Origin: Paludibacteraceae bacterium
Lineage (GTDB): Bacteria > Bacteroidota > Bacteroidia > Bacteroidales > Paludibacteraceae
Length of the DNA stretch: 64,000 nucleotides
Assembly: GCA_034090015.1 (NCBI GenBank)
Contig: JAXDTJ010000018.1
Location: 41,740 to 105,739, forward strand
Direction of reading: 5' to 3'
Shown here piece after piece: positions 11,500 through 56,620 of the stretch; positions within the stretch are counted from its first letter, which is position 1, and every line of letters begins with the position of its first letter. The notes beneath the pieces are model-generated. The model did no database searches and had not been told where the DNA came from. It saw only the letters and a program-made list of their open reading frames with translations. The translations under genes were made by a program, and so were the position numbers.

Positions 11500-11583
11500 A
11501 ATCTTTTTGTCCTTTCTCTTTTGATTTAGGTTACGAGTAACCCTCGCGGGCTACGGGTACGCTCACGCGCACGGGAATAAAAT

Positions 11584-11671
11584 AATTAAGAATTATGAAT
11601 TAAGAATTAAGAGCGGCTTACGCCAACGGGATAACCACTGCCTCTTAATTCATAATTCTTAATTCTTAATT
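11584..11671. repeat. TTAAGAATTATGAA-word hairpin between rpmF and rluB
   Basis: Left arm AATTAAGAATTATGAATTAAGAATTAAGAG, 29-nt GC-rich loop, right arm CTCTTAATTCATAATTCTTAATTCTTAATT. Confidence 0.85.
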
Positions 11672-11683
11672 CTCAACATTCAC

Positions 11684-14189: not shown

Positions 14190-14223
14190 CTTTTTAACGT
14201 ATCATTCTCACTTGCTTTCCTTT

Positions 14224-14348
14224 CAACATATAATTACCGTATAATTAACCATTAATTTTTCTTTGCTGAATTATTAGGAATACATACACGTAGAAATGTC
14301 CTCAATGAAAATAATTAATGAATAATTACACGTTAATTATATGTTAAA
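14224..14348. repeat. ACATATAATTACCGTATAATTAACC-word hairpin
   Basis: The left arm is ~85 % identical over ~50 nt to 56661-56712. The right arm is an imperfect complement (TTAATTATATGTT). Confidence 0.7.
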
Positions 14349-14464
14349 ATGTAAATTGGCAATTACACGTTAAATGTACTACATTACCTATCATACACGT
14401 CAATTAAACGTGAAATGTATCACACCTTGATTATATGTTAGAAGTTGATTTGCACCGATCTCCA

Positions 14465-17640: not shown

Positions 17641-17880
17641 GCGACTGTCAGACCGCTGTCCGACTGATTTACTGGGGACGCGGGCGGCTCGCCCGCGGGC
17701 CCGTCGGGCCCGAACAGCGGGTGTGGGCCATGTGATATCCTCCACGGCTTGCGCCTTGCCCGGGGGCGAGACGCCCGCGTCCCCAGTAAATCAGTCGTTC
17801 AGCGCAGCGGTCGGACAATGAAATGGTCCCGATAAATCGGGATGCAAGCATCTGACAGCGAAGCGGTCAGAAACATCTGT
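17641..17880. repeat. composite element: CAGACCGC-word palindrome with nested GC-rich MITE-like insert
   Basis: Perfect 25-bp inverted repeat GACTGATTTACTGGGGACGCGGGCG (17662-17686 / 17772-17796), flanked by GACCGC and GCGGTC words. Confidence 0.8.
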
Positions 17881-19705: not shown

Positions 19706-21289
19706 ATGAACATCCACGAAGAATCCCAACGCTGCTTGTTGTGCGAGAACGCCCCTTGCAGTCAAGCGTGTGCCCACGGCGACCCTGCGCGGGCAGTGCG
19801 CGCCATCCGTTTTGATAACCTCCACGCGGCAGGGCAGTGGTTGCTGCCATGCACCGACCGCGACCTCCAAGCCGCTGAGCAGGCGTGTATCCACTACGAC
19901 CGCTCCATCCGCCTGCGCGAACTCCGCGATGCCTACAAGCAGGAATGTAAACAAAGGTTAGATAACCATCTCCCCCGCCCCGCTTCGTTTATCCCAGTTT
20001 ATCCCGACTTGTCGGGAACCAGTCGGGACGGGGAGGAGAATAGGGGGCGGGGAGAAAATACCTTGTTAGCCTCCCTCCCCTCCCTCGCCATCGACTTCTG
20101 CGGTATCCCCTGCGAGAACCCCTTCTTCCTCGCCTCGTCCGCCATCTGCACCAACTACGAGATGGTCGCCCGCGCCTTCGACGCCGGCTGGGCAGGGGTC
20201 TTCTACAAGACAATCAGCCTCCAAGACATCCGCGAGGTCTCGCCCCGCTTCGACGCCATGCACACCAACGCCGCCAAGGGCGATTTCTACACCCTGCGCA
20301 ACATGGAGCAACTCAGCGAGAACCCCGCCGAGGTGGACTTTGACATCCTCGCCCGACTCAAGCAGAACTACCCCTCGAAAGTCATCGTAGCGAGTATCAT
20401 GGGGCAGACCGAGGAGGAGTGGATTACCCTCGCGAAGATGGCGGAGAAGGCGGGAGCCGATGCCGTGGAACTCAATTTCTCTTGCCCGCAGATGCGCCTC
20501 GCGGGGATGGGTAGCGACGTGGGGCAGAACCCCGAACTGGTTACGTTCTACACCGCCTACGTCAAGCGCAACGTCTCCATCCCCGTCATACCCAAGATGA
20601 CGCCCAACATCACCCATATCACCGAACCCGCGATGGGAGCCTTCTTCGCCGGCGCAGACGCTATCTCGGCTATCAACACCATCAAGTCCGTAACCATGAG
20701 TCCCCGCGCGGAGGTCGCCGACCGCCGCACCGTCTCAGGTTTGTCTGGACGCGCCGTCAAGCCCATCGCCCTGCGCTTCATCGTCGAGATGGCGAAGAAC
20801 CCCCTGATGAAGAACATCCAGTTCAGCGGTATCGGAGGCATAGAGACGTGGCGCGACGCGCTGGAATTCATACAGTTAGGCTGCCGCAACGTGCAGGTGT
20901 GCACCGCCGTTATGCAGTACGGCTACCGTATCATCGATGACCTTACCTTAGGCTTACAATTATATATGTCCGCCCGCGGGCTCACGCGCGTGGAGCAACT
21001 CGTTGGCGAGGAACTGCCCTCGTTCGTAACCCCCACAGACCTCGACCGCGAGACGATGGTCTTCCCCAAGATTGACCGCACGCGCTGTGTCGGCTGCGGG
21101 CGTTGTTTCATCTCTTGCGCCGATGGCGGACACCAAGCCATCACCTTCGATGCCGACCGCCGCCCCCATATCGTGGGTATCAAGTGCGTGGGCTGCCACC
21201 TCTGTCGCCTCGTCTGCCCCACGGGCGCCATCGGCGCGGCGCAACGCATGCCCAAGCACCAACTCCCCCGCACCTCCGACCCCACCTAA
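19706..21289 (+). CDS. PreA/dihydropyrimidine-dehydrogenase-B-like flavoprotein (DHOD-like TIM barrel + Fe-S domains)
   Basis: N-terminal CLLCENAPCSQAC. DHOD-like blocks NPFFLASS, ELNFSCPQ and GIGGI. C-terminal CVGCGRCFISC and CVGCHLCRLVCP ferredoxin motifs. I prefer the ATG at 19706 over the track start at 19661. Confidence 0.75.
   Translation: MNIHEESQRCLLCENAPCSQACAHGDPARAVRAIRFDNLHAAGQWLLPCTDRDLQAAEQACIHYDRSIRLRELRDAYKQECKQRLDNHLPRPASFIPVYPDLSGTSRDGEENRGRGENTLLASLPSLAIDFCGIPCENPFFLASSAICTNYEMVARAFDAGWAGVFYKTISLQDIREVSPRFDAMHTNAAKGDFYTLRNMEQLSENPAEVDFDILARLKQNYPSKVIVASIMGQTEEEWITLAKMAEKAGADAVELNFSCPQMRLAGMGSDVGQNPELVTFYTAYVKRNVSIPVIPKMTPNITHITEPAMGAFFAGADAISAINTIKSVTMSPRAEVADRRTVSGLSGRAVKPIALRFIVEMAKNPLMKNIQFSGIGGIETWRDALEFIQLGCRNVQVCTAVMQYGYRIIDDLTLGLQLYMSARGLTRVEQLVGEELPSFVTPTDLDRETMVFPKIDRTRCVGCGRCFISCADGGHQAITFDADRRPHIVGIKCVGCHLCRLVCPTGAIGAAQRMPKHQLPRTSDPT
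19969..20055. repeat. palindromic element inside the PreA-like gene
   Basis: TCTCCCCCGCCCC ... GGGGGCGGGGAGA arms enclosing ATCCCGACTTGTCGGGAACCAGTCGGGAC. Confidence 0.75.
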
Positions 21290-21292
21290 TAC

Positions 21293-21340
21293 CCACTGGG
21301 GACGCCTCACTGGGGACGCCCCGACAGTGTCGCGGGCGGA
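21293..21340. repeat. ACTGGGGACGC words after the PreA-like gene stop
   Basis: CACTGGGGACGCCTCACTGGGGACGCCCCGACAGTGTCGCGGGCGG, related to 17668 and 63388. Confidence 0.7.
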
Positions 21341-21407
21341 TAGTTCGGAACGAACTAATATCAACTAATAGGGGATAATGAGCCGACGATAAGCCGACAA
21401 TTACGGT

Positions 21408-21447
21408 AAAAAGACGGCAAAAGGACGGCAAAAAGACGGCAAAAGGA
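21408..21447. repeat. GACGGCAAAA(A/G) x3 tandem words
   Basis: AAAAGACGGCAAAAGGACGGCAAAAAGACGGCAAAAGGA. Confidence 0.8.
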
Positions 21448-21829: not shown

Positions 21830-22023
21830 GACCGCAGCAAGACCGTCTGACGACTGTCAGACCGCGCTTCGCGCTGAAAGACAAAAGATCGCTCACTTCG
21901 TTCGCTGTCAGACTGATATAGTCTCAAATGCTGAATCAGTCTTTCAGCGAAGCGGTCGTACAGTGAAACGGTCAGACAGCGAAGCGGTCGTTCAGCGAAA
22001 GCGGTCTAACAGCACAGCGGTCA
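21830..22023. repeat. ~190-bp CAGACCGC-word palindrome after second lipoprotein gene
   Basis: Same architecture and centre (GACTGATATAG...CTGAATCAGTC) as 19536-19692. Confidence 0.8.
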
Positions 22024-23161: not shown

Positions 23162-23257
23162 ACACGAAGCGAAGCGGAGTTAAAAACACGAAGTTGCATA
23201 CACGAAGCGAAGCGAAGTTTCCTACACGAAGTTATAACACGAAGTTAAAACACGAAG
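23162..23257. repeat. six ACACGAAG octamers abutting the giant ORF start
   Basis: Copies at 23162, 23186, 23200, 23224, 23237 and 23250. The last three are 13-bp tandem units ending 6 nt before the ATG. Confidence 0.85.
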
Positions 23258-23263
23258 TTTGAT

Positions 23264-26200
23264 ATGAAAAACCGTTTATTCTTTTTATGCGTTGCCATGC
23301 TGGTGGCATGCGGCGTAACGATGGCTGACAACACTTGGTTTGAGGAGGGTCGTAACTTCTCTGCCTATTCTTTGGGTCAAGGCAAAGTGCATGTGAAGGT
23401 GCTGGTCTTTGCGAGAGGAGGTACGAATAACCACTGGGCAACGACGGGAAACGGCGGAAGCTTCGTCTATGCCTATTCCTCCGGAAATACAGTTTATGCG
23501 TTGCAGTACGAAGGCGATAATAATTACAACTGTGAGAACGACTACAAAGGTTGGGTGAAGTTTCAAGTGAAGAGCGGTACGGTGATTATTACCAATTCCT
23601 ACGGAGGCAACAACAGCACCACATACACTCCGAGCAACGGTTGGGTAAATCTATACCTATCGCGTACAGGAGAGAGCAACACCCCTACTTATTTGGAGTT
23701 CGACTGGTATCCGCCCACAGTCTTGGATAACAGGTCCTTCGACTTGAAAGCGACCATCACCGATACACGAAAGTATGGGGATACATGGACGCACACGTGG
23801 TACTTAGGCTCTTTCTCCGGCCTCTCTTTACAAGCGCCTATGCTCTATCAACCCGTGTTCTATAGCGTTGGAGAAGATGGTCAGCCGGGGCACGGACAAG
23901 TGGCTATTCCGTATGTGGTGTACCAAGAGCCGAAGAGTTACACCACCTCCACCACCGGCAATACTACCTTCATCTGCAAAGAGCGGACAGGTCAACTGCT
24001 GGCAAAGACCACCGACACGGTGCAGTATGGTTTTTCTGCCAACTTCACTGTCGTGCGCGAAGACAAGACCACCACGGTAGTAACTTCCAGCAAGGTGGAC
24101 ATCCCTGCGTTCCACCGTATCTATGATTTTAAAGCAGAACATTATGTACCGGAAGGTATGGATAGTATGTGGTATATAAAAACCAAGACCACCCTCAGTT
24201 GGAAGGTGCGGACACCCTGGGCAACCGATATCATGCCTATGGATATGTTCCAGATTCAGCGCGCCTACCATCCCGACTTCTCCGATGCCGAGACCCTCGC
24301 ACTCATCCCTTACGAGACAGGCAAGGGCACCTACCAGTGGGTGGACGACACAGAAGGGGCGATGAAAAACCTGAGAACGGATACTATTGACATGAATATC
24401 TACTATCGTGTAAACCGCGTCTCTACCACCAACTGGGGCTATGAAGGGCACGAGTGGGTGCGTACTACCGCCATCCGGAAAAACACCAGCTTAACGCATT
24501 TTGACTCCGATTATAGTAACTACCGCAAAGCAGACGATTTTCAAGAAACAAGGCGCGTGTTGTTTACATTAGAAACATTGACTGATCTAAACATGTCATA
24601 CTGTTGGGATGAGAGAGCCTCCATACGCGTACGCCGACTGGCTATCTCTGCCGTGGATACTATCATCACGGAGAGAGTATTCCCCGGCTCTATGGTGCGG
24701 CCCTTGCCCCCAGACCCCAAACGAGGCAACCCTTATTTCAGTACCCTCTACCGGTTTGACTTCGAAGATGTAGCAGACATCCCTTGTTGCCACTATGAGT
24801 ATGAGGTATATATAGACGACAGCCAAAGTCTGCTGAAGTTAGATGACTTGTACCACCGCTATCAAGAACCGCTGAAGTTAACCTCCTTAGACCTTTACTA
24901 CACCGATGCGGCTTCTATTGCTACCTTCCGCGTGTCGGACGGAGTCTATCCCGACCGTATCTTCCTGCAATGGAACCCAACATCAGGCAGCGTAGACTCC
25001 TTCTATGTATATCGGAGCACAGACCAGAGGCAAGGAGGCGAGGAGATTGCCCGCATCGCAGGACAGCACTATTATATAGACACGGATGTCGTCCCGGGCA
25101 CGGTTTACTACTATACCCTAATGGCGTCTTATCTTTGCGGCGGTACGCATCAGACGCAGTTTACCGAGCAAAAGAGAGGCAGTCTGTCGCCCTACGGATG
25201 CATCCGCGGGCGTATCACATACCCCAATGGCACCGGCAACGTCGGCGTAACAGTACGGGCTGAGGGTATAAGTGGAGATGTTGCTTCTATCACCCCCAAC
25301 TACCTCTATGCCGACTCCACACGCGTAGTATATAATAGTACGCAAGACCCCGTTTCCCTGAGCGGCGATTTCTCTATCCAGATGATGGTCAAAGACTCCG
25401 ACCTCACTATCGTTAGCGGTACCGGACACCCATTGCTATATAGCACCGATAGTACTTTCCGCCTCGAACTATCCGGCGAAACTATCCGCTTCACCATGGG
25501 CAACCAGACCAGACTACTCAGCCTACGTAACGAACACAGCCAAAACAACGATAACAACATTTTCTCCCTCACCCTCACCTACTGTGCCCACACCCAAACG
25601 GTAACCCTCTACCGCGATGAGCAACAGACCGCTACCGCCACTATCCCCCTGCACAACATCCATAGCCGCTTGCGCTTCTGCTGCCCCTACTCGCTCGCCC
25701 CCGTCTCTTCCTACGGCGTGGGCATTGATGAAGTGCGTATCTTCCACCGCGTGCTCTCACAAGACAACGTCCGCACATACTCGCGACATGCCTTGGCGGG
25801 AGACGAAAACGGACTGATACTCTACTACAAGTTCGACATGCTATCTTTATCTGATATCGCTATCCCCAATATAGCAAAGATGCAAGCCACGGACGGCAAC
25901 GGAATGATGGCAGCGAACAACGCACTCATTTGGGACAAGGCAAAAAATGATGATGATTACCGATATATCCACCTCCCGGGAGACCTCATCACGCGCTTCG
26001 AGGCACTCACCGACGAGAGCGGCAACTATGTCTTAGCGGGCATACCCTTTGCCAACGGCATTACTTACAGCCTTACCCCCACAGCCCAACACGGCACCTT
26101 CCGCTATAACGGCACATCCTCTGCTTCAGCCACCATCACGATTGGCAACACGCGCCCGGAAGCAACCGCTGTGGACTTCATGAACACCGATGCCGTGCGC

Positions 26201-29200
26201 TTCAGCGGCAGGATACTCTACGAACGCTCCACCATACCGGTGAAGGGCGTGCATTTCTTGGTGAACGGCATACTCGCCACCGATGCCACAGGCAACCCCG
26301 TCGAGACCAACGAGAGCGGTAACTTCCAGTTTGAATTGCCCAAAGCACCGATACGGGTGCAGGCTGTGAAAGACGGACACTGCTTTGCCAACGATGGATA
26401 CCTGATTCTCAACGGAGACACCCTCTTCCAACCTACCGACAACATCGATGCCATTCGCTTCTACGACCGAACGAAGGTACGCCTCATCGGGCGTATTGCC
26501 GGCGGTAACGACCAAGGACTACTCCCCTTAGGCTTCGGACTCAGCCGTAACAACCTCGGCGACCATATCTGCATGGTGCTGGAGTTAGAGGGCGACAACG
26601 CCGCGCAGATAGTCTTCGACCCCTTGGACAAGACCCTCAACCGCCTTGACACCACTATCGTCCATGCCATAGACACCACCCAACATACCGACATTTCCTT
26701 GCAGAGCAAGCGGATAATGATTTACCCCGACCCGGCTTCCGGAGAGTTCTTTGCCGACCTCTTCCCCGTGAAGTACAAAGTAACCCAACTGACCGCACAA
26801 GGCTATAGCACGCTCACCAACGAGAAGACCGCCATGCAGGTCATAGACCTCACCAACAAACTCGACAGCCAATACACCTATTATACTGACACCATTCAAG
26901 GAGGTGCGGTCTCCAGGCCGCACCAAGAGAACTATGACGAAACCATGGTGCGGTTAGGAGACCGCACCTCCTTGGCCTTCCACGACACCTTCCGACATAT
27001 CTACCATAGCCCCATCACCGTAACGCCCGTACAGAGCCTTTACGGCATGGAGGTGGGCTATTTCGGCGTCGAGCGTATCGCTGTGCAACGATGGGACGGA
27101 GAGTCGGAATCCCAGTCGGTAGCACTTGCCAAAGAAGACGGCACCTATGAATACCTCTTCGGAAAACCCATCTTCACCGAAGGCAAATACACCTTCAATA
27201 TCTACGCGCACGAGGACTATTACTATAATGGCGACCGCAACCTCGGCAAGCACGACCGCGTGATGCTCCACGAAGGCGAGGTGAAAATCTATAACGGCAT
27301 GCACTCCAACACAGAAGTGCTGACCGGGACGCTCGATAAAGACGGTGTCTGCCGCAACATGGTCCTCCGCGCGGATTATCCCACCTACACGCGCGTGGAC
27401 GAAGACGCTGCGCGAAACATACAGGTTACTGTAACCTACGAGCGTGAATCCCATACTACCGAGCCTTTGCGGGTGCTGGTATTCGCCGACCGACGAGAGG
27501 GAACAGAGGCAATATCCTCCACCACGGCAGACATCACACTCTACGATATCCTGCGCGACCCGCCCGGCTCCGGCAGTTTCGCTACACTCAGCGCAGGAGC
27601 ATCATACTCCGCATCGAAAACATGGGCGTTATCCGTCAAAGCGGGTGTCACACTCGAGTTCGAAAAAGGAGTAAAATATGCCGGATTTGTGGGAGCGGTT
27701 ACTGCCGTCCCGGGACTGCTATCAGCGCAAAACTATAACATAAACACAACCACACCATTCAGCATTCCGCTGGTGTATAATTATTCCATCAACAAAGATT
27801 ATAGTTATTCCTATTCCACCACCGAGACCATACGAACGGGTAGTGATGCCTACCATGTAGGTGCAAAAGCGGACATATTCATGGGGGCAGTGGAGAATCT
27901 CTATATATCTACTTGCCACGGTATGGCTGTGCTGGACTCGCTGACCTATCTATCGATGGCTGCGCAGAAGGAGAACGGCACCATGCGGCATATCGCTACC
28001 GCACGAAATCTACAAGGTGAACTACGCCACCTCGTGGTAGCGCCTAAACTCACCTTAGACATGGTGCAGGATGCCACTTTCTGCTACACCCAAGAGCACA
28101 TCCTCACCACCGTGATTCCCAAACTGGTAGCCCAACGCAATGCCTTGGTGCTTTGCGTGGACTCAGCGGCGGCAAGAGCAAAAGCCAATCAAGAGAAAAA
28201 GCGTATCTACTACACTACGATGAGCCCTGATAGTGCCGACTTCGCAATAACACGCGGGAAAGGGTACGACTTTGTTGACCCCGTAAATAATACCGATAAT
28301 ACACCCGAGGCGGATAAAGTAGCCGGTATCAACCGTGCCATCCTCGCTTGGACCAACCTGATAAAACAAAACGAGAAGGAGAAGGTCAATGCACAATATA
28401 CCACCGACAAAAAAACATATTCCGTGGCAGGTGGCTCTACGCTTACCTATTCCGAAACGGTAACTTACGGCAGCAAATATAACGAAATACCCTTCAACTT
28501 GGGCGGTTCTGCCGGAGCAAGCAATCTGAGCAATCTATGGGGAAACGCCATCAACAAAACCATACAGACGCTTCTACAGGTAGGTGGAAAGGCTGATTCT
28601 ATCACCATTGAGAGCGAAGCGCCGGGCAGCAAGTTCTCCTTCAGTTTGAAACCCATTGCCAATATAAGCACCCAACCAACTTACGCCGCCTCCGAACAGA
28701 AGTCGCGCACCTATGGTTATACGCTATCCCCAGACCGGTTCGGATATATGGATGTGCAAGTAATGCGCATGAAAGACACGATAAGCGATTTCTACCAAAA
28801 CGCGGAGGATACCCTTGCGTTAACAGGAGAGAAAGCCAATGGTAAACTGCAAAGTTACAGCAGTTTCATCTTCCGCCAGTTGGCAGGTGCCAGCCGCTGC
28901 CCGTGGGAGGATGCCGACTCCACACTCTTCTACCAGCCCGGCACGCCGCTGAGCATTGCCACCGCGCGCTTGGAAAACCCGCAGATAACCATCGCCCAAC
29001 GCGAGATAAGTAATGTGCCTGCCGACCAACGCGCCATCTTCCAAATCGCCCTCAACAACGAGCAGACCTACTACACGGGCATAGGTGCAGCCACCCTGCC
29101 CTTTGAACTGTCGGTTATGCCGGGTAGCAACCCCAACGGACTCAAGATAACCATAGACGGCCAACCCCTCACCTCGGATCCTTTATCCATCACTCTCCCG

Positions 29201-32200
29201 CACGGCACTACGATCCACAAGACCATAGAGGTGGAGCGCGGACAGGGTTACGACTTCGAGGACATCACGCTCCTCCTGCGCTCTACCTGCGATATCATGG
29301 AGTATGCCCTCGCCGCCTTCTCCGTCCATTTCGTACCTGCCGCCACCCCTGTCTCCATGCCTACCCCGCATGACCAATGGGTGCTTAACACGCAGTCCGC
29401 ACGCGACTCCGCAGGCTACTACCTACCCGTCTCCATCGACGGCTTCGACATCCACTCCGACGGCTTCGACCATATCGAGTTGCAGTACAAGCCCCACACC
29501 GCCTCCGATGCTGATTGGGTGAACATCTGCTCCTACTACGTCTCCGACAGCCTCTACGAGCAGGCATCGGGCACCAAGCAGCGTATCGCGGGCAGCAAGA
29601 TAGACAACATCCGTTTCTACGGCGGGCGCGACCCCATGGAGCAGGAGTACGACCTCCGTGCTATGGCGTTCGCACGCTACGGCAACGGCTTCGTTACTCG
29701 CGCCTCGGAGGTGCTCCACGGCGTGAAAGACACACGCCGACCCGAACTCTTCGGCACCCCAACGCCTGCCGACGGCATACTTTCCGTAGGCGATGTGCTC
29801 TCGCTGCGTTTCAGCGAACCCATTGCAGGAAACCTATTGGACGAGGATGTTAATTTCGAGGTGATTGGTACGGATGATGTTCTCTCACTCACCACCTCCC
29901 TCCATTTCACAGGCGAATTCTCTTGCTACGCCCGCACAAAGGTTACCCGCAACATGAACGCCCGACCCTTCACCATTGAGGCAATGATTAAACCTACCGG
30001 AAATGCAGCCTTGCAAACCATCTTCGCGCTGGACAACGAGAAAGAGCCTCTGTGGTTCGCATGGGCGGGAGACCATCTCGAAGCACAGATAGGAAAAGTG
30101 CGACTGCAATCCGCCACCGTAGAGCCTATCCTCGACTTCACACGAGTAGCACTTACCTACAACCTGGAGGACTCTATTGCCCGATTCTTTGTTGGAACAC
30201 AAGAGATTAATTATGAATTAAGAATTAAGAATTATGAGCATTCCGAGCACTCCGATAACTCCGAACACTCCGATTACTCAGCAACCAACGCGAAGCCGTC
30301 GTACCATAGTGCTGCTCAACTGATTTGGGGTAACAATGCTACTTATGATGCTCCCTTCCAAGGGGATATGTTGGAAGCACGACTATGGACGAAAGCACTC
30401 ACGCAAGCCGAGTTGGCGCGGTATAAAGACTGCCATCTGACGGGCTACGAGCGCGAACTGGTGGCATATTACCCGATGAACGAAGGGAAAGGCACTACTT
30501 GCGAGGACAAAGCCAATGGTGCCACCCTCACCCTTAACGGCACCTCGTGGGTACTGCCCGAAGGTATGTCTATCCACTTGAACGGCGCAGAGCCTATCTG
30601 TCTCAACGGCGACCTGCTCAGCCGCTCCGACATCGAAGACCTGACCCTGCTCTTCTCCTTCAAGGCAGACGAAAACCTCGCTGATACATCTGAACTCCTG
30701 CATGCAGGCAAGCATACCATGCACCTTACCTCGGATGCCTTGCTATGGAGAACCGACAGCACCGAACGCCGTGCACCGGGGGCTTTTGCAGATGCTCAGT
30801 GGCACCAGTTGGTGGTGGCTATTGACCGCACGAGGAATATAGCCTCTCTGCTTGTGGATGGCAACACACTGCTTGCCACAGCGGCTGACGACATACCCGC
30901 CTTCGCAGACAGTGTCTGGACACTGGGGCAGTCTTTCCGAGGACATATCGATGCTTTCACGCTCTTCGAACAGGCATTGCCTACCTATGTGATAGAACGC
31001 TACAACAATCTCGCACCGCAAGGAGACGAGATGGGACTTATCGCATATATGCCTTTCGGGCAGTATATCCTCCAACCCAACGGACGCTACGAGTTAGTCT
31101 ATTCGCCGGAGAACGCCCGTATCTTCCGCGATGCCGACGGGAATACGGTAGAGAAGCACCAAAAGCTGGTGATGAACAACCTCACACGCTACACCGATAA
31201 AAAGGATTTTGCACCCTTGCGTAATGGGAATGCCCGAAAGAAACTTAACTTCTCGTGGGCAAGCAATGGCGATGAACTGATGATAAACATCAACATGCCC
31301 GACCATGAGATTAACCATCGCAACCTGCTCCTGACGGTGCAGCGCGTGGAGGACCAACATGGCAACGCCATGCTCAGCCCCCACACATGGGCGGCTTATG
31401 TGCACCGGCAGCAACTGCGTTGGGACAACCCGCAGATTAACTATGAGCAACAGGTTCCTGGTTCCGAGTCTCAGGTTTCAAGTGCGCAGCCTTACACCTT
31501 CACCGCCACCATCCGCAACCACGGTGGTACTACGCGGGAGTATCATCTTAACTCCCTTCCCTCGTGGCTCACGGCGCAGCCGGCTTCCGGATTCCTTGCG
31601 CCGCTGGAGACGCAGACCATCACCTTCACTGTGGACGAAGGGCTGAACATCGGCGAATATACCGAGTATATCTACCTGACCGACGACCAACAGTTGGACG
31701 ACCGCTTGTTGCTCAACCTGCACATAAAAGCCACCTGCCCTTGGACACTCGACCAGACGGAACTCAACCGCTCCATGTCGCTAATCGGGCAGGTACAAAT
31801 ACCCGTCGAGAACGGTACAATACAAATAGATACCGACTCACAGGATATGGTGGCAGCCTTCGTTGGCGAGCAGTGCGTGGCTTTGGCTCCCGTGCGGCTG
31901 AATCAGCAGACAAAGCCGGTTACCTACATGACCATCTACGGTAACGATAGCCATGCAGGCAAGGCGCTACGCTTCCAACTCTGGCATGCCAAGAACGGCA
32001 AGGTCTATATCCTTGCCCCGAGCGAAGACATCCCCTTCCGCGCCAACGAATGTTATGGCTGCGAGGGTACACCCATCACGCTCACCGTGACCGACCGACA
32101 GGTGCAACTGCTCACGCTGCAGCCCGGGTGGAATTGGTTCAGCCTGTATCTCAAGCCCACCTATCGCTCGGACCTCACGCGCCTCTTCTGTTCATCCGAC

Positions 32201-33334
32201 GCATGGACGAACGGCGACATCATCAAGAACCCCGAAGAGCAATACTTCGCAGAATATCAGATGAATACCTCGCCAATTCGATGGTATGGTACCCTATCCA
32301 CGATACGGTACCGCAGCATTTTCTTGGCGCATGTGTCGAATCCTATTCTACTGCAGATTGAGGGCGACCGTTTGGACGATGAGGGACGCACGCTCACGCT
32401 TGAGCAGGGGTGGAACGTAATGCCCTATCTCCTGACAGAGAAGCAGTCGCTCACCGACGCCTTGGCTGACTACTACGACGATGCCTCCGAGGGCGACCTC
32501 ATCAAGAGTCGCGATGCCTTTGCTGTCTTCTCCCACGCAGGCAAGTGGGAAGGCAACCTCACATATATGCAACCCGGGCTGGGGTACATGCTCCGCCGCC
32601 TCGCACCCGACCCCTGTACCTTCACTTACTATACTTATAACCCGTTGGAACAAGGGACAGGAAGCCAGGAGTCAAGAATTAATTATGAATTAAGAATTAA
32701 GAAAAAATCGTTCGAGCGTAGCGGAGATAAGAATTATGAGGGCAACGCAAACAACGTAAACAACGCAAACAACGCAAACAACGCGCAGCCTTACACCTCT
32801 GCCACTACCATGTCGCTCATTGCCACGGTGGAATTGGAGCCGGGAGTCAAGAACCAAGAACAAAGACTAAATGGTTCCAACGATGAGATTGCAGAAACGA
32901 AGGTAATAAGTCTTTCATCCTGTGTCCTTTGTCCTTCATCCAATGAAAGCCTTACCCTCGCTGCTTATATCGGCAACAGGCTTGTGGGGGTCGGTTATCC
33001 GCAGCAGGTAGGGACAACGACAGAAGACGCTATCTTCTTCCTATCTATCGCCGATGGCGCAGAGGTGGCAAGTGGGCAGTGGCCAGTGGCCAGTGGTCAG
33101 GAGGTTAGTGGTCAGATACGCTTTGTCCTTCTCTGCAACGGCGAGCCGGTGGCACACGGCACCCAGACCTTGCCTTATCAACAAGATACGGTGGTGGGTA
33201 CCCTACGCAAACCCTATCGTATCACATTCCATACCATAGACGATATGCAAGACAAGCCGTATAAGATATTGGAAAATCAACAAATATACATTATTCGCAA
33301 TGAAAACAAATATAATATCCTTGGCGTTCATTAG
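23264..33334 (+). CDS. giant (3356 aa) secreted surface protein with FN3-like, carboxypeptidase-regulatory-like and three LamG (laminin-G_3) domains
   Basis: Signal peptide MKNRLFFLCVAMLVACGVTMA. FN3-like FLQWNPTSGSVDSFYVYRS. LamG endings IDEVRIFHRVLSQDNV, LEARLWTKALTQAEL and IDAFTLFEQALP. The frame is uninterrupted for 10 kb. Confidence 0.85.
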   Translation: MKNRLFFLCVAMLVACGVTMADNTWFEEGRNFSAYSLGQGKVHVKVLVFARGGTNNHWATTGNGGSFVYAYSSGNTVYALQYEGDNNYNCENDYKGWVKFQVKSGTVIITNSYGGNNSTTYTPSNGWVNLYLSRTGESNTPTYLEFDWYPPTVLDNRSFDLKATITDTRKYGDTWTHTWYLGSFSGLSLQAPMLYQPVFYSVGEDGQPGHGQVAIPYVVYQEPKSYTTSTTGNTTFICKERTGQLLAKTTDTVQYGFSANFTVVREDKTTTVVTSSKVDIPAFHRIYDFKAEHYVPEGMDSMWYIKTKTTLSWKVRTPWATDIMPMDMFQIQRAYHPDFSDAETLALIPYETGKGTYQWVDDTEGAMKNLRTDTIDMNIYYRVNRVSTTNWGYEGHEWVRTTAIRKNTSLTHFDSDYSNYRKADDFQETRRVLFTLETLTDLNMSYCWDERASIRVRRLAISAVDTIITERVFPGSMVRPLPPDPKRGNPYFSTLYRFDFEDVADIPCCHYEYEVYIDDSQSLLKLDDLYHRYQEPLKLTSLDLYYTDAASIATFRVSDGVYPDRIFLQWNPTSGSVDSFYVYRSTDQRQGGEEIARIAGQHYYIDTDVVPGTVYYYTLMASYLCGGTHQTQFTEQKRGSLSPYGCIRGRITYPNGTGNVGVTVRAEGISGDVASITPNYLYADSTRVVYNSTQDPVSLSGDFSIQMMVKDSDLTIVSGTGHPLLYSTDSTFRLELSGETIRFTMGNQTRLLSLRNEHSQNNDNNIFSLTLTYCAHTQTVTLYRDEQQTATATIPLHNIHSRLRFCCPYSLAPVSSYGVGIDEVRIFHRVLSQDNVRTYSRHALAGDENGLILYYKFDMLSLSDIAIPNIAKMQATDGNGMMAANNALIWDKAKNDDDYRYIHLPGDLITRFEALTDESGNYVLAGIPFANGITYSLTPTAQHGTFRYNGTSSASATITIGNTRPEATAVDFMNTDAVRFSGRILYERSTIPVKGVHFLVNGILATDATGNPVETNESGNFQFELPKAPIRVQAVKDGHCFANDGYLILNGDTLFQPTDNIDAIRFYDRTKVRLIGRIAGGNDQGLLPLGFGLSRNNLGDHICMVLELEGDNAAQIVFDPLDKTLNRLDTTIVHAIDTTQHTDISLQSKRIMIYPDPASGEFFADLFPVKYKVTQLTAQGYSTLTNEKTAMQVIDLTNKLDSQYTYYTDTIQGGAVSRPHQENYDETMVRLGDRTSLAFHDTFRHIYHSPITVTPVQSLYGMEVGYFGVERIAVQRWDGESESQSVALAKEDGTYEYLFGKPIFTEGKYTFNIYAHEDYYYNGDRNLGKHDRVMLHEGEVKIYNGMHSNTEVLTGTLDKDGVCRNMVLRADYPTYTRVDEDAARNIQVTVTYERESHTTEPLRVLVFADRREGTEAISSTTADITLYDILRDPPGSGSFATLSAGASYSASKTWALSVKAGVTLEFEKGVKYAGFVGAVTAVPGLLSAQNYNINTTTPFSIPLVYNYSINKDYSYSYSTTETIRTGSDAYHVGAKADIFMGAVENLYISTCHGMAVLDSLTYLSMAAQKENGTMRHIATARNLQGELRHLVVAPKLTLDMVQDATFCYTQEHILTTVIPKLVAQRNALVLCVDSAAARAKANQEKKRIYYTTMSPDSADFAITRGKGYDFVDPVNNTDNTPEADKVAGINRAILAWTNLIKQNEKEKVNAQYTTDKKTYSVAGGSTLTYSETVTYGSKYNEIPFNLGGSAGASNLSNLWGNAINKTIQTLLQVGGKADSITIESEAPGSKFSFSLKPIANISTQPTYAASEQKSRTYGYTLSPDRFGYMDVQVMRMKDTISDFYQNAEDTLALTGEKANGKLQSYSSFIFRQLAGASRCPWEDADSTLFYQPGTPLSIATARLENPQITIAQREISNVPADQRAIFQIALNNEQTYYTGIGAATLPFELSVMPGSNPNGLKITIDGQPLTSDPLSITLPHGTTIHKTIEVERGQGYDFEDITLLLRSTCDIMEYALAAFSVHFVPAATPVSMPTPHDQWVLNTQSARDSAGYYLPVSIDGFDIHSDGFDHIELQYKPHTASDADWVNICSYYVSDSLYEQASGTKQRIAGSKIDNIRFYGGRDPMEQEYDLRAMAFARYGNGFVTRASEVLHGVKDTRRPELFGTPTPADGILSVGDVLSLRFSEPIAGNLLDEDVNFEVIGTDDVLSLTTSLHFTGEFSCYARTKVTRNMNARPFTIEAMIKPTGNAALQTIFALDNEKEPLWFAWAGDHLEAQIGKVRLQSATVEPILDFTRVALTYNLEDSIARFFVGTQEINYELRIKNYEHSEHSDNSEHSDYSATNAKPSYHSAAQLIWGNNATYDAPFQGDMLEARLWTKALTQAELARYKDCHLTGYERELVAYYPMNEGKGTTCEDKANGATLTLNGTSWVLPEGMSIHLNGAEPICLNGDLLSRSDIEDLTLLFSFKADENLADTSELLHAGKHTMHLTSDALLWRTDSTERRAPGAFADAQWHQLVVAIDRTRNIASLLVDGNTLLATAADDIPAFADSVWTLGQSFRGHIDAFTLFEQALPTYVIERYNNLAPQGDEMGLIAYMPFGQYILQPNGRYELVYSPENARIFRDADGNTVEKHQKLVMNNLTRYTDKKDFAPLRNGNARKKLNFSWASNGDELMININMPDHEINHRNLLLTVQRVEDQHGNAMLSPHTWAAYVHRQQLRWDNPQINYEQQVPGSESQVSSAQPYTFTATIRNHGGTTREYHLNSLPSWLTAQPASGFLAPLETQTITFTVDEGLNIGEYTEYIYLTDDQQLDDRLLLNLHIKATCPWTLDQTELNRSMSLIGQVQIPVENGTIQIDTDSQDMVAAFVGEQCVALAPVRLNQQTKPVTYMTIYGNDSHAGKALRFQLWHAKNGKVYILAPSEDIPFRANECYGCEGTPITLTVTDRQVQLLTLQPGWNWFSLYLKPTYRSDLTRLFCSSDAWTNGDIIKNPEEQYFAEYQMNTSPIRWYGTLSTIRYRSIFLAHVSNPILLQIEGDRLDDEGRTLTLEQGWNVMPYLLTEKQSLTDALADYYDDASEGDLIKSRDAFAVFSHAGKWEGNLTYMQPGLGYMLRRLAPDPCTFTYYTYNPLEQGTGSQESRINYELRIKKKSFERSGDKNYEGNANNVNNANNANNAQPYTSATTMSLIATVELEPGVKNQEQRLNGSNDEIAETKVISLSSCVLCPSSNESLTLAAYIGNRLVGVGYPQQVGTTTEDAIFFLSIADGAEVASGQWPVASGQEVSGQIRFVLLCNGEPVAHGTQTLPYQQDTVVGTLRKPYRITFHTIDDMQDKPYKILENQQIYIIRNENKYNILGVH
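26897..26974. repeat. 78-nt palindromic element in-frame in giant ORF
   Basis: Arms GGAGGTGCGGTCTCCAGGCCGCACC / GGTGCGGTTAGGAGACCGCACCTCC. The left arm is identical to 62935-62959. Confidence 0.85.
30206..30280. repeat. TTAAGAATTATGA words + CACTCCGA words in-frame in giant ORF (LamG domain 2)
   Basis: ATTAATTATGAATTAAGAATTAAGAATTATGAG, then GAGCACTCCGATAACTCCGAACACTCCGATTACTC. Confidence 0.85.
32666..33115. repeat. cluster of five different word-repeat families in-frame in the giant ORF 3' region
   Basis: Five families are present: TTAAGAATT words (32675-32705); CAACGCAAA x~5 (32744-32786); AAGAACC words (32846-32865); the AAGGTAATAAGTCTTTCATCC... copy of the 58204 repeat (32897-32945); and CAGTGGC words (33070-33115). 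Confidence 0.85.
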
Positions 33335-33888: not shown

Positions 33889-33943
33889 TAGGTGATTCAT
33901 AGGTGATTCTTAGGTGATTCTTAGGTGATTCATAGGTGATTCA
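33889..33943. repeat. TAGGTGATTC(A/T) x5 perfect-register tandem repeat
   Basis: Five 11-bp units. Two inverted copies lie at 56425-56445. Confidence 0.9.
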
Positions 33944-33994
33944 CAGCGAAGCAATCTATCCCGACAAGTCGGGACCAACAGCGAAGCGATCTAT
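33943..33994. repeat. TCCCGAC-AA-GTCGGGA hairpin flanked by direct ACAGCGAAGC(A/G)ATCTAT repeats
   Basis: Same hairpin core as 20001-20029 and 52378-52408. Confidence 0.75.
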
Positions 33995-34071: not shown

Positions 34072-34336
34072 AAATTTACGAATTACGATTTACGAATTAC
34101 GATTTTCCGTTAAAGACCATTAAAAGACCATTAAAAGTTTAAGTTATACTCCGTTAATTGCCGTTAATTATTCGTTAATTTTTTTGCCTCCATTAAAGAC
34201 CATTAAAGGTTCATTAAAGGCAAAGTTTTAATGGTTCTTTAATGGGCTTTAACGGAGAAAACAAAAAGAAATTAATGAATAATTAACGGTCATTAACGGA
34301 GAACGAAAATAATTAACGGGCATTAACGGAAAACGA
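34072..34336. repeat. word-repeat leader of polyamine operon (CGTAAAT, CCATTAAAG, CCGTTAAT words) with nested inverted repeats
   Basis: 34150-34182 is a near-perfect complement of 34270-34301. The inner pair is 34190-34220 / 34226-34247. Confidence 0.8.
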
Positions 34337-34340: not shown

Positions 34341-35228
34341 ATGGAGAATTTTGCCGGATTAAGCGGGCGTTGGGCGGACGAAAAGACCGCGCGGATAGTG
34401 GTGTTGCCTGTGCCTTATGACAAGACGAGTTCGTGGGTACACGGTGCGGAGAAGGGACCGGAAGCCTTCTTGGAGGCGAGCGTGCAGTTGGAGTGGCTGG
34501 ACACGGAGACGCGGACGGAGGTCTATCGTCAGGGTATCCATACCGCCGCGCCCGTAACGGAAGACCGCACGCCGGCGTTGCTATGCGAGGCGGTGGAAGA
34601 ACGCATGGGGGCACTATGGGACGCGGGGAAGTTCCCCTGCATGATAGGCGGCAACCACACGGTGTCTATCGGTGCTTGCCGCGCGGCGGCGAAGCGTTTT
34701 GAGGGGCTGACGGTGCTGCAATTAGACGCACACAGCGACCTGCGACCCGAATACGAGGGGTCGGAGTTGAACCACGCCTGCATCATGAAAGAGGCGCAGA
34801 AAGTGGCGAAGACGGTGCAGGTGGGGATCCGCAGCCAGTGCGTAGAAGAGGCGGAGAACGCTGCGAAGAGCACGATTATATGGGCGCGCGAGATATGGGA
34901 AGACGAGACCTTCGGGCAGCGACCTGCCTCGGCGAGCGAGAGTTGGGCGTGGGAGAAGCGGGTATATGATGCGCTGACGGAGAATGTGTATCTGACCATC
35001 GACCTCGATGTGTTCGACCCTGCTTATCTGCCCTCTACGGGTACGCCGGAGCCCGGGGGCATGGGCTACTATCAGGTGCTGCACCTGCTGCGACCTGTGT
35101 TCGAGCGATACAACGTGGTGGGGTTTGATATCGTGGAACTCTGTCCGAGCCCGACCCGCCAAGCGCATGCGTCGCAGTACCTCGCCGCACGGCTGGCATA
35201 TCAGTTGATGACATACAAATTTATTTGA
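34341..35228 (+). CDS. speB: agmatinase (arginase/ureohydrolase family)
   Basis: GGNHTVSIG, LDAHSDL and DLDVFDP Mn-binding motifs, in a polyamine gene context. Confidence 0.85.
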   Translation: MENFAGLSGRWADEKTARIVVLPVPYDKTSSWVHGAEKGPEAFLEASVQLEWLDTETRTEVYRQGIHTAAPVTEDRTPALLCEAVEERMGALWDAGKFPCMIGGNHTVSIGACRAAAKRFEGLTVLQLDAHSDLRPEYEGSELNHACIMKEAQKVAKTVQVGIRSQCVEEAENAAKSTIIWAREIWEDETFGQRPASASESWAWEKRVYDALTENVYLTIDLDVFDPAYLPSTGTPEPGGMGYYQVLHLLRPVFERYNVVGFDIVELCPSPTRQAHASQYLAARLAYQLMTYKFI

Positions 35229-35305
35229 CAATTGGACAATTTACAATTTGACAATTATGCGCCGCATGGCTAATTGTAAAATTGTCAATTGTAAAATTGT
35301 AAAAT
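35224..35305. repeat. GACAATTT-word hairpin between speB and nspC
   Basis: Loop TGCGCCGCATGGC. The speB TGA lies inside the first word. Confidence 0.85.
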
Positions 35306-41028: not shown

Positions 41029-41128
41029 CATTTGACAATTTGACAATTTACTATTTTACAATTAACCATGCGGCGCATAGTTGTCAAATTGTAAATTGTC
41101 AAATAGTCAAATAGTAAATTGTCAAATA
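41029..41128. repeat. GACAATTT-word hairpin between GT2 and hypothetical gene (inverted copy of the 35224 family)
   Basis: The loop CCATGCGGCGCATAG is the reverse complement of the 35258 loop. Confidence 0.85.
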
Positions 41129-45700: not shown

Positions 45701-46379
45701 CCCCGTTGACCAATCTTCTATTACTTTCGACCAAGAAGGTCGTCAAGATTGTTGGTACACGCGCGTAAAATCGGATAAGGCTCCCATGCGTGTGGCAGCA
45801 AACGCAAACCGAAAAGTATTCAATATCGTTATGACAAGAGATTCGATAGAGGATCATACGCGTATAGTGCTCAACGATGATGCTTTGCTCGCATACGAGT
45901 TGGATAAAGATGCTTCCAAATTGATGGCTGATAATAATGCTGCTATGTTGCTCTATAGTGTTCACGATGGTGTACGCTATGCCATCAACGAGCGTCCTAT
46001 GGACAACGGAAAGGTAAGTTTAGGTTTCTTTGCACCTGAGGAAGGAGATTTCGAACTCTCTCTCAACACAACAGAAAGTGGCAATGTTATCTTGATGGAT
46101 AGTCTCACCAATACTATGACTACTCTGACCGGCAGTTACCGTTTCCATTCCGTAGCAGGTTACCACAATACCCGTTTAACCCTTGTATTCGAAACACCCA
46201 CCGAACTCAATCGCGCGGTTATCGGCAGCGATGGAAGTCTGTTGCATCAATCGGCTCAAATCTATTCAGTGGATGGTCGATGGATAGGGAATTATTATGA
46301 TGGCTGCATCAACAACTTGAATGCAGGTATTTACCTCATTATCGGACAGGATGTTAAACGCAAAATAATTGTGAAATAA
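42729..46379 (+). CDS. BspA-type leucine-rich-repeat surface protein with T9SS type-A C-terminal domain (1216 aa)
   Basis: Signal peptide. Two N-terminal OB-like modules. LRR units of the form IGNYAFSGCKKLKSISL and IGQYAFS. The C-terminus NLNAGIYLIIGQDVKRKIIVK looks like a T9SS CTD. Confidence 0.8.
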   Translation: MKKLFTVCVALVVAMTMTAENMTCSDAATAALALGGGVTATDSVTVTGYVSVLKGDVSTKYETPQQQFCMDDTKGSNAETLLIYWANIPEEFRESLTSLNVGDKVSVTGLLCHYVKSGVSIPELVNGNVKMLERNEVEIDTLDMTTCEVIAAAEALNADEYLDEVIIVSGLVSAVSSTSERQQTFEMTCDDNNKIFQAYNVAVTEPVFVGDSVIVVGKVKNYNGIIEAHGGKAYITKKGEVKHGPIVVTSNSSSGISNACFTATLEDGTILGFYSYFPDLGYDDDFVFCGAISQRTELTIPDSVIFNSISYPVTKIGCYNNGNRAYQCDLSNATSVKSVILPSTIAYIYDLPSTVEDLHINSDVSWYNGTKTLQNLSKLYVPADLYNPIMGNANMRNYVIILEEGQEPIRITINMTTAGEFAQLLLQQTDNNWYHVHELTVTGPLNANDLNVFKRMKQLQKLDLSNAVIADIPNNFNGATGYRGNSSDMNLLEELSLPSINNIGNYAFSGCKKLKSISLTSVNSIGQYAFSYLGAPHISLPEGTTSIGTNAFYYSNITGIDLPSTLTSIGDYAFAYSELKSIEIPSPITDVSAYCFYECDSLVSVSLPISTQQIKSYAFSNCENLTAINLQELINLKSIESYAFNGCYALKEIELAGSLRNINSGTFGGCYNIKSVKSYAVIPPSGNSTYSLLDGCDYTGVTLYVPAMSIAAYRAAAGWSDFYTVLPLEEQINNLYIYDFATIADVSEFSTDCNVTLGWEYLSRNGYSSMFYGALTYNDTATFSMHNYRQYQDLGSSSSSYPYAVNPIFTSLVANGPMRADSVQTTLITKSTYDWYFISLPYDVQVADITYSEGAQFVIRKYSGYNRAQQAGATWQNLTTDSVMHAYEGYILKCNLQDASFTFPAINNAHKNNMFQKGDAVVPLNEYLSEFEHNRSWNLIGNPYPCWYDSRYMDFSAPISVWNRYYDRYDAFSPVDDSFILQPSQAFFVQCPVDQSSITFDQEGRQDCWYTRVKSDKAPMRVAANANRKVFNIVMTRDSIEDHTRIVLNDDALLAYELDKDASKLMADNNAAMLLYSVHDGVRYAINERPMDNGKVSLGFFAPEEGDFELSLNTTESGNVILMDSLTNTMTTLTGSYRFHSVAGYHNTRLTLVFETPTELNRAVIGSDGSLLHQSAQIYSVDGRWIGNYYDGCINNLNAGIYLIIGQDVKRKIIVK

Positions 46380-52351: not shown

Positions 52352-52377
52352 GCCAAGCGATAACTCATAGAGGCGCG

Positions 52378-52408
52378 GTTCCCGACAAGTCGGGAACTGG
52401 TCGGGAGC
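52378..52408. repeat. TCCCGAC-AA-GTCGGGA hairpin between the 1990-aa and 802-aa genes
   Basis: GTTCCCGACAAGTCGGGAACTGGTCGGGAGC. Confidence 0.75.
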
Positions 52409-52463
52409 CGCACCAAAAGAAATAATGTATCAACAAATTTATTAACCTTTTCATCAAAAAAGT

Positions 52464-56508: not shown

Positions 56509-56612
56509 ACACTTTTTCTTTATTTGGACAAATAAATTTCTGTTTTGACGGCTTATTTGCCCTATTTTCTGATAAAATAGGGGTGAGTCTTGCATATGTC
56601 AAAAAAAAGTAG

Positions 56613-56620
56613 TAAATTTG
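56613..56620 (+). promoter_or_regulatory. -7 box TAAATTTG for lipid kinase-dut operon
   Basis: AAAAAAAAGTAGTAAATTTGC context, 150 nt before the ATG at 56771. Confidence 0.45.

Follow-up and report, generated by a model that had tools for sequence, protein, structure and literature searches.

How can a long, strongly folding palindrome lie within the reading frame of a gene that otherwise appears intact? This question is raised by a 64,000-nucleotide stretch of DNA from a Paludibacteraceae bacterium (GenBank assembly GCA_034090015.1, contig JAXDTJ010000018.1, positions 41,740 to 105,739 of the forward strand; hereafter the window), in which a first-pass annotation made from the sequence alone had noticed a nested palindrome of 87 nt at positions 19969–20055, inside a gene for a PreA-like flavoprotein. 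The implied reading was that a dispersed hairpin had entered the linker of PreA in frame. Our comparisons support it, as orthologues lack the segment and its core is dispersed in this and related genomes. We conclude that the feature is very probably a composite hairpin repeat of about 120 nt, resembling repetitive extragenic palindromic (REP) sequences and transposable elements of the miniature inverted-repeat kind (MITEs), that was inserted into a preA gene which is in other respects normal and functional, in the linker between the domains. The comparisons establish insertion with polymorphism, a quantum of 21 nt, dispersal of the module, relaxed constraint on the insert and intactness of the gene.

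The host gene (19706–21289, forward strand, as are the parts of the element and the other hairpin copies placed in the window below) encodes an intact protein of 527 aa, in which an N-terminal Cys cluster is followed by the linker with the element, a DHO_dh barrel and a C-terminal pair of [4Fe-4S] sites. The equivalog score, the barrel and the C-terminal 2x[4Fe-4S] region together identify it as PreA: the NCBIfam NF006183 PreA equivalog matched residues 126–515 with 517 bits (cut-off 335), and Pfam placed DHO_dh at residues 127–418 and Fer4_21 at residues 455–509, with a weak Fer4_20 match at residues 3–45 that stayed below the cut-off (19.6 bits). The translated palindrome lies between the N-terminal Cys cluster and the first strand of DHO_dh, as had been noted. 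The 120 best homologues were Bacteroidales-type PreA proteins, most of them 482–490 aa long as against 527 aa here. When we aligned 14 orthologues at approximately 70–77% identity, all with the same N-terminal domain, the window protein had about 40 extra residues exactly in the variable inter-domain linker. This alignment had been set beforehand as the comparison that could refute the reading, should orthologues share the linker sequence; all 14 lacked the segment, and their linkers were short and unrelated. The segment was common only to a 95%-identical sister lineage, where it is 21 nt shorter. As a separate observation, the region 19706–19960 and all aligned orthologues indicate that Bacteroidales PreA has a domain of about 85 aa fused at its N-terminus, in which the cluster reads CxxCxxxPCxxxC; this domain may substitute for part of PreT.

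As read, positions 19969–20055 are TCTCCCCCGCCCC GCTTCGTTTATCCCAGTTTA TCCCGAC TT GTCGGGA ACCA GTCGGGA CGGGGAGGAGAATA GGGGGCGGGGAGA, and the letters agree with the first description. The outer C-rich arm TCTCCCCCGCCCC (19969–19981) and the outer G-rich arm GGGGGCGGGGAGA (20043–20055) do form the inverted repeat that had been proposed (inverted-repeat pairs I1 and I5), with imperfect complementarity: the repeat finder gave arms of 18 nt with 78% complementarity around a perfect 9-nt core, CCCCGCCCC/GGGGCGGGG. The extent of 87 nt did not stand, the element being about 120 nt long. A fold of 19944–20072 closes at AACAA (19950–19954) and TTGTT (20063–20067), and DNA and RNA folds together with the length difference delimit the whole composite palindrome (19950–20067), which with flanking codon positions covers residues 82–121 (KQRLDNHLPRPASFIPVYPDLSGTSRDGEENRGRGENTLL); this span of 40 aa equals 527 aa minus the orthologue length of 487 aa. 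Inside it are a perfect 7-bp hairpin, TCCCGAC-TT-GTCGGGA, at 20002–20017 and a second GTCGGGA at 20022–20028, and the repeat finder reported two direct repeats, GTTTATCCC twice at a distance of 10 nt and GTCGGGA twice at a distance of 11 nt. The RNA fold of the 118 nt reached -49.2 kcal/mol (z = -2.95), none of 200 shuffled sequences folded as well, and z ranged from -2.6 to -3.0 across folding runs. Misassembly is typical at palindromes and repeats, and the contigs that support the feature are short, but an assembly or chimera artefact at the repeat is scarcely credible: four independent assemblies from other sequencing runs contain the identical element (L003–L006, 98–100% identity), two further runs contain the allele that is shorter by 21 nt, and the frame is kept in all. 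Its presence in four independent assemblies shows that the feature is real.

The building block of the element is a 21-mer that consists of a 5-nt tail, GTTTA, and the 7-bp hairpin TCCCGAC-NN-GTCGGGA. The sister lineage (P0002; 95% protein and 94% DNA identity) has the element minus exactly GTTTATCCCGACTTGTCGGGA, which encodes VYPDLSG, and loci L001 and L002 show a clean 21-nt gap relative to the window. The sequence left in P0002, GTTTATCCCGACCTGTCGGGA, is another 21-mer of the same form, so in the window allele one 21-mer sits within the left arm of another. Its inner 21-mer, GTTTA-TCCCGAC-TT-GTCGGGA (19997–20017), matches the family pattern exactly and is enclosed by the two parts of the outer one, namely a left unit of 10 nt, GTTTATCCC plus A (19987–19996; direct repeat D3), and a right unit of 11 nt, AC-CA-GTCGGGA (20018–20028; direct repeat D4). 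Thus preA holds one layer in the sister lineage and two in the window lineage.

We found the same series in an unrelated gene of the XRE family with a helix-turn-helix (HTH), whose homologues are mostly 103–104 aa long, with a few of 110 aa and two of 117 aa. Its states were read from a DNA alignment of loci with near-identical flanks at one site. The empty state reads ...ACCGCCC|AAGAAC... and encodes 103 aa; one layer (ACTTG-TCCCGAT-GT-GTCGGGA) adds 21 nt and gives 110 aa; in the two-layer state, with 42 nt added and 117 aa, a 21-mer of the GTTTA type is nested after TCCC. The added peptide is VYPDLSG, the same as in PreA. The layers are gains, because empty loci far outnumber the others. In one XRE-HTH protein of 117 aa (P0180), the site is without an insertion and the N-terminus is a different, longer one. 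Steps of 21 nt also separated paralogous repeats: L062 from L036:2018 and, for a repeat family in L196 and L167, gtcattgcgggc-TTGA/TTGC-cccgcaat from ...TTA[21-mer]A/C... Across layered copies, the left units were 10 nt apart in 9 of 9 cases and the right units 11 nt apart in 19 of 19. Two further loci were noted alongside. An FkbM-type methyltransferase-like open reading frame (ORF) in L148 (2479–3627, reverse strand) reads ...YPDQARI-VYPDLSG-VTVILG..., with the 21-mer translated upstream of the methyltransferase domain; this is probably a third in-frame coding insertion. In L159, at about 1627–1652, GTTTATCCCGACGAGTCGGGATAAAC gives the unit a full symmetry, as each side has the tail, and it matches the 21-mer pattern on both strands.

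The composite as a whole also recurs. L090, a metagenome contig from a related organism, has an intergenic element that aligns along the whole composite and has the same fold, with a C-rich left arm, one 21-mer and a G-rich right arm, GGAGGGGAGGTGGTAGGGGGCGGGAAGGTAC; this homologous copy indicates that the composite is itself a dispersed element. The composite is open in one of the six reading frames, the one used in preA, and the 21-mer alone is open in five of six. These comparisons bear on the possibility that no mobile element is involved, that is, that a native low-complexity linker turned palindromic through replication slippage or quasi-palindrome correction and that the other hairpins are convergent. 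Slippage is clearly active in this DNA, because the window is rich in tandem repeats (62 Tandem Repeats Finder rows); intergenic modules have also been swapped between strains, and there are arm duplications with identical loops (for example L041, L062 and L065). However, duplication of the 10-nt left or the 11-nt right unit alone would shift the frame, and in coding sequence the two always occur together; stepwise intermediates of +10 or +11 nt were absent among 28 unit spacings. Moreover, the first 21-nt layer of the XRE-HTH gene entered a site without a prior hairpin, an identical 21-mer with 19 specified bases occurs in four phyla with unrelated flanks, and slippage would have to account for the homologous 100 nt of the composite in L090. 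We therefore regard slippage as an unlikely origin and retain insertion of a hairpin repeat as the explanation.

How widely is the module dispersed? In the window, TCCCGACNNGTCGGGA occurs at 20002, 33959 and 52380, which is three matches where 0.01 would be expected, and none of 100 shuffled sequences reached three. In a species-representative genome collection, the pattern TCCCGACNNGTCGGGA-N(2-8)-GTCGGGA was found at 83 loci, as against approximately 2 expected for 596 Gb by our own calculation; the window's own genome is not among the 83 returned loci. All GTTTA-tailed copies among them were in metagenome-assembled genomes (MAGs) of Bacteroidales, namely Paludibacteraceae LOHA15, LOHA31 and MAG123, Bacteroidales HGM05423, HGM05431 and SUG649, and a Cryptobacteroides MAG. 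The same 7-mer stem also occurs in other phyla, in unrelated REP-like families that may be convergent; one example is a Chloroflexi MAG with approximately 25 copies headed by GTAG or GAAG. The exact 21-mer GTTTATCCCGACNNGTCGGGA was present at 120 or more loci in metagenome contigs with GC contents of 28% to 64%, and among the matches listed 8 loci had several copies per contig. Clusters of proteins at 90% identity or more placed such contigs in Ignavibacteria (L129 and L154), Chloroflexota/Dehalococcoidia (L146) and Deltaproteobacteria (L091). Judged from these contig assignments, four or more phyla share the identical stem and tail (Bacteroidales, Ignavibacteria, Chloroflexota and Deltaproteobacteria).

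Conservation stops sharply outside the 21-mer: A occupies position -1 in 68% of copies and follows a weak CGGA, and the right flank varies. The loop dinucleotide is free but strand-biased (TT 24, CT 23, TC 14, AA 12, AG 1). Covariation in the stem is sparse (the loop-closing pair is C-G in 28, T-G in 5 and T-A in 3) and not decisive. Most copies are intergenic, and related Bacteroidales loci hold dozens. The 21-mer often lies in the loop of lineage-specific hairpin repeats; we rejected the stronger rule that it always caps a host hairpin, as the overall signal was weak (mean -9.25 versus -8.56 kcal/mol, p = 0.03) and the rule held in some families only. Coding matches in HflX (L111) and CreD (L193) fall in conserved motifs without a change in length, and we took them as chance matches, being about the number expected.

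To see what kind of constraint acts on the insert, we compared codon changes between the window and L001, in the sister lineage. The element has six non-synonymous and two synonymous changes, compared with 11 and 50 in the other 488 codons (Fisher p = 0.002). Two of the L001 substitutions fall in the outer G-rich arm, which there reads GGGGACAGGGAGA, and break its pairing with the C-rich arm, so the pairing of the outer arms is not conserved. Purifying selection thus acts on the gene but not on the inserted peptide, and conservation does not extend to the outer stem. Relaxed constraint on the peptide and a broken outer stem fit a passenger, and they argue against both a selected peptide and a selected large RNA structure. 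The latter might serve in the preA mRNA as a translational pause that separates the Fe-S domain from the barrel, as an RNase processing site or as a stabiliser. In its favour are the strong fold (-49 kcal/mol, z of about -2.6 to -3), retention of the inner hairpin in the sister lineage, the placing of intergenic copies between co-directional genes, as with REPs that act as RNA (the copy at 52380 lies 21 nt past a stop codon), and the loop bias, with TT, CT and TC far commoner than AA, AG and GA. Against it, orthologues in all other Bacteroidales do without the element, two substitutions have opened the outer stem in the closest relative, the number of layers differs between near-identical strains, and the same module occurs in genes and spacers that are unrelated to one another, facing either way with respect to adjacent genes without bias (42 versus 33); the hairpin has no terminator-like T-run on its 3′ side and no Rfam match. 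A selected RNA is, on this evidence, an improbable explanation, and a hairpin repeat carried as a passenger is the one that we prefer.

The similarity of the module to a CRISPR unit was also considered. The reverse complement of the Bacteroidales form, GTTCCCGAC-NN-GTCGGGATAAAC, shares with the E. coli type I-E repeat GAGTTCCCCGCGCCAGCGGGGATAAACCG the motifs GTTCCC and GGGATAAAC around a hairpin of 6–7 bp, a resemblance only. It is conceivable that the copies are solitary I-E-like repeats that act as CRISPR RNA-like or Cas-binding decoys or regulators, but we consider this very unlikely. We took a CRISPR array to consist of three or more identical repeats of 28–37 nt, unique spacers of similar length and cas genes nearby. 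The window copies are solitary or nested, and the window and the approximately 200 loci contained no arrays with unique spacers; loci with several copies had them in tandem or dispersed with similar, repeated spacers. The conserved stretch is only 21–23 nt long, the window has no cas gene, the GTT on the 5′ side of the hairpin is not conserved outside Bacteroidales, and nesting of a unit in its own arm is not CRISPR behaviour. The 21-mer was found in only one contig of a collection of 2.9 million viral contigs, and with this single match we also rejected a phage origin. We return, then, to a dispersed hairpin repeat.

In our reading, a new copy of the module lands inside the left arm of an existing one, and each such event lengthens the sequence by 21 nt, or seven codons, with 10 nt gained on the left and 11 nt on the right. 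Its persistence in a coding gene may be explained by a layer length that is a multiple of three, by a composite that is free of stops in exactly the frame used, and by a site in a presumably disordered, length-variable linker that joins the Fe-S helical domain to the flavin barrel. The element is accordingly translated as a 40-residue spacer rich in Pro, Gly and Arg that is not under selection at the protein level. Spread might be driven in trans by a hairpin-specific enzyme, such as an HUH/Y1-type transposase of the REP-associated tyrosine transposase (RAYT) kind, or alternatively by a hairpin-dependent process of replication or repair. It is possible, but we advance it tentatively and with some doubt, that the 21-nt unit is an autonomous-looking replicative module moved by such an enzyme. 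Such a module may insert at a defined position after a pyrimidine run, whether in its own left arm, in the loops of other hairpins, in tRNA-like T-arms or in coding sequence, where its size of seven codons and its five open frames of six may make it tolerable. The mover could possibly be related to type I-E-like CRISPR-repeat machinery or to HUH transposases.

Several observations weigh against our preferred explanation of the preA palindrome. Five nested or loop pairs of filled and empty sites cannot be written as a simple contiguous insertion, which in these pairs would need a change of G to A or T every time. They can be derived in two equivalent ways: either the host G is kept in the middle, as YY[W-GTTTATCCC]G[AC-NN-GTCGGGA], or A or T together with the 21-mer takes the place of that G. 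A plain contiguous insertion of 21 nt was seen only for the first XRE-HTH layer, beside an ambiguous A or AA, and the nested layers showed no target-site duplication, the host G being replaced there instead. An empty preA site for the full 120 nt is lacking, the nearest element-free orthologues being approximately 72% identical; because there is no close empty site, the outer boundaries of the composite are deduced from the palindrome and the length difference. Transposase, Y1/RAYT and cas genes were not found among the approximately 40 ORFs of the window, and when every ORF of 90 aa or more from about 200 loci was clustered, no recurrent transposase emerged near the approximately 200 copies, the recurrent clusters being housekeeping proteins, surface proteins and spurious ORFs only; nor did these clusters include a parent insertion sequence with matching ends. 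The AlphaFold2 model, which speaks for the explanation in that residues 88–118 are coil without secondary structure at a predicted local distance difference test score (pLDDT) below 50, is of low overall quality (mean pLDDT 60, alignment of 16 sequences). Finally, the functional neutrality of the 40-aa insert is inferred.

In-frame insertion of a hairpin into a permissive linker is a known kind of event. Rickettsia palindromic elements (RPEs; Ogata et al. 2000, 2002) are summarised in PMC10969869 and PMC3733652 as palindromes of about 100–150 nt that lie in frame in unrelated functional genes, are translated as extra peptides at permissive sites and also occur between genes; they are not known to have a dedicated transposase. 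The window element is alike in palindrome length, in-frame coding insertion, translated peptide, intergenic copies and the lack of an assigned mobilising enzyme, and RPE-like coding insertion is seen both in PreA in the window and in the XRE-HTH protein with 0, 1 or 2 layers. The likeness is one of behaviour, and because the host is a member of Bacteroidales, not Rickettsia, we do not claim membership. The window element also differs in being built of a self-nesting 21-nt module with exact seven-codon steps and a multi-phylum distribution. To our knowledge, neither a self-nesting seven-codon module nor sharing across phyla has been described for RPEs.

Intragenic REPs catalogued by Di Nocera et al. 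are likewise in frame and translated, often as 20–30 aa, and are tolerated at modular sites (PMC3733652, PMC10969869). REP super-families are defined by a GTAG or CGTC tag (PMC3733652), and REPINs, which are REP doublets, occur with RAYT transposases (PMC3116915). The present family resembles these repeats in its short, GC-rich, imperfect palindromes with a short unpaired tail, in its multiple copies, which often form larger hairpins, and in lying mostly between co-directional or convergent genes, and intragenic copies are documented for REPs as well (PMC3733652). Four copies of the dispersed short palindrome are present in the 64-kb window. Its tail, however, is a conserved GTTTA that follows a weak CGGA, in place of GTAG or CGTC; successive layers share one orientation, nest at spacings of 10 and 11 nt and do not form REPIN-like doublets, with only L159 being symmetric. 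With 21 nt, the unit also sits at the bottom of the REP size range, and the available sequence yielded no RAYT gene. As in a MITE, there are terminal inverted repeats, given here by the imperfect palindrome with its AACAA/TTGTT ends and its C-rich and G-rich arms. Closest in size and nesting are the small dispersed repeats (SDRs) of Nostoc and Anabaena, from which the present family differs in sequence and phyla. SDRs are reportedly hairpin repeats of about 20–30 nt inserted within other repeats (Elhai et al. 2008, Genome Res 18:1484), with no known associated transposase; they are said to have been detected by comparing paralogues with and without the insert, and their genomes to contain many short tandem heptamer repeats. 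We know of no description of fixed 10 + 11-nt self-nesting or of in-frame coding insertions for SDRs. Rfam searches (4,227 covariance models, gathering and E-value thresholds) gave no match at the hairpins in the window or 14 related loci, and full-text literature searches for GTCGGGA/TCCCGAC and GTTTATCCCGAC/GTCGGGATAAAC returned primers and unrelated CRISPR spacers only.

What is new here is the anatomy: a self-nesting 21-nt module that adds seven codons per event, spans several phyla and follows a reproducible junction rule. Most known examples of palindromic repeats within reading frames come from Rickettsia and a few REP-rich proteobacteria, and the preA case extends them to Bacteroidales of the gut or rumen type. 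The natural series of 0, 1 and 2 layers is unusually clean, each layer adding 7 aa while the flanks stay nearly identical, and it shows how protein linkers can be lengthened stepwise. The module is short, conserved across phyla and strict in its nesting geometry, with no enzyme that can be assigned to it. If it is truly mobile, the 21-mer would be among the smallest mobile DNA known and would set a lower size limit for transposable DNA, and a 21-mer oligonucleotide would be a tractable substrate for finding the enzyme. In practice, such units inflate and vary ORF lengths, create spurious ORFs with peptides such as VYPDLSG and will be a source of confusion in annotation and strain typing.

The other copies in the window lie in spacers. 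Recurrence of the inner hairpin had been reported for two spacers, and we confirmed it at 33959 and 52380. The first of these, TCCCGACAAGTCGGGA (33959–33974), is flanked by CAGCGAAGC(A/G)ATCTAT words. The second belongs to an intergenic composite (52372–52414) in which a host stem, GGCGCGG/CCGCACC, encloses TCCCGAC-AA-GTCGGGA-AC-TG-GTCGGGA; this composite starts 21 nt after the stop codon of an ORF of 1990 aa, the hairpin stands between the second and third BspA-type leucine-rich repeat (LRR) genes, and its RNA fold reaches -31 kcal/mol (z = -5.8). It is of the same family as L035, L036, L080 and L168, and on account of this homology the copy at 52380 is oriented as the preA copy. The suggestion that complementary loops (TT versus AA) mark flipped copies found no support, given that the loop dinucleotide varies freely across the family. 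A variant hairpin that had been placed at 17832 does exist, but at 17827–17842: TCCCGATAAATCGGGA, followed by TGCAAGC, lies in the spacer between genes for an AraC-type regulator and an SDF transporter, and its module, CCCGATAAATCGGGATGCAAGC, recurs in L035 and L038.

Outside Bacteroidales, two contexts of the hairpin deserve description. In the Chloroflexi MAG JACQTY01, a MITE-like family of about 150 nt, separate from the GTTTA-tailed family, has approximately 25 near-identical copies reading (GTAG/GAAG)-TCCCGAC-CA-GTCGGGA-AC-AA-GTCGGGA, the head of which fits the classical GTAG signature of REPs (loci L012, L034, L037, L039, L055, L059, L064, L070, L079 and L082–L085). In contigs of the Ignavibacteria type, the 21-mer replaces the 3′ T-stem strand of 3′ fragments of tRNAs. 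Thus L163 (8765–8960) has tandem partial duplicates of the 3′ end of tRNA-Phe beside the intact tRNA, and in one duplicate the 3′ strand of the T-stem (TCCG) is replaced by GGA plus the 21-mer, filled and empty copies standing side by side with a difference of 20 nt. The junction GGTTCGAT|GGA[21-mer] is also found in three other contigs (L099, L185 and L205), and a tRNA-like sequence in L099 has TCCCGACAAGTCGGGA in place of the anticodon arm. We rejected the identification of the GGTTCGATGGA contexts as tRNA or transfer-messenger RNA, because the only calls made by ARAGORN and Rfam are of intact tRNAs nearby; the contexts themselves are fragments of tRNA 3′ ends.

The remainder of the window is ordinary Bacteroidales chromosome, with LigA, DapA, class 3 fructose-1,6-bisphosphatase, a pectate lyase with CBM77, a polyamine cluster and giant BspA-type LRR proteins. 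The genes for giant surface proteins occupy 23264–33334 and 42729–54872 and include one of 3356 aa with Laminin_G_3 and, in a row, three for BspA-type LRR proteins (1216, 1990 and 802 aa). Next to preA lie genes for an SDF transporter and an acyltransferase and two small ORFs that resemble lipoproteins; an adjoining preT partner, as in the E. coli preTA operon, was not found among them.

The tandem repeats counted above over the whole window are short and dense in its intergenic spacers (for example 63646–63733, 33889–33943, 21403–21444 and 11584–11673) and are reminiscent of cyanobacterial heptamer repeats. Their units include CTCTCAA (12.6 copies), TAGGTGATTCA (5 copies) and ACGGCAAAAAG (3.8 copies), and inverted AATTAAG arrays flank a hairpin. 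The word CAGCGAAGC(G/A)(G/A)TC forms a 16-nt tandem array of 4.9 copies at 21945–22023 and brackets the hairpins at 17827 and 33959 (17800–17870 and 33944–33994); it contains GCGAAGC, which we take to be a very stable DNA mini-hairpin. A similar sequence, cgaagcaatct, flanks GTCGGGAC hairpins in the Chloroflexi loci L018, L050, L074 and L089. In the spacer 3′ of the preA stop codon (21290–21374), L001, L005 and L006 have different repeat modules in strains that are otherwise 94–99% identical, and one of the swaps involves a degenerate hairpin, CCCGACAGTGTCGCGGG, at about 21328. Other intergenic modules, such as TTACACGTTAATTATATGTTAAA and AATGAATTAATG, share 80–97% identity with contigs from different Bacteroidales MAGs and metagenomes in which the flanking genes are unrelated (11582–11626, 14212–14375, 23202–23246, 32856–32942, 34227–34304, 35225–35257, 41032–41064, 56575–56695 and 58204–58403), which points to a repertoire of mix-and-match mini-repeats.

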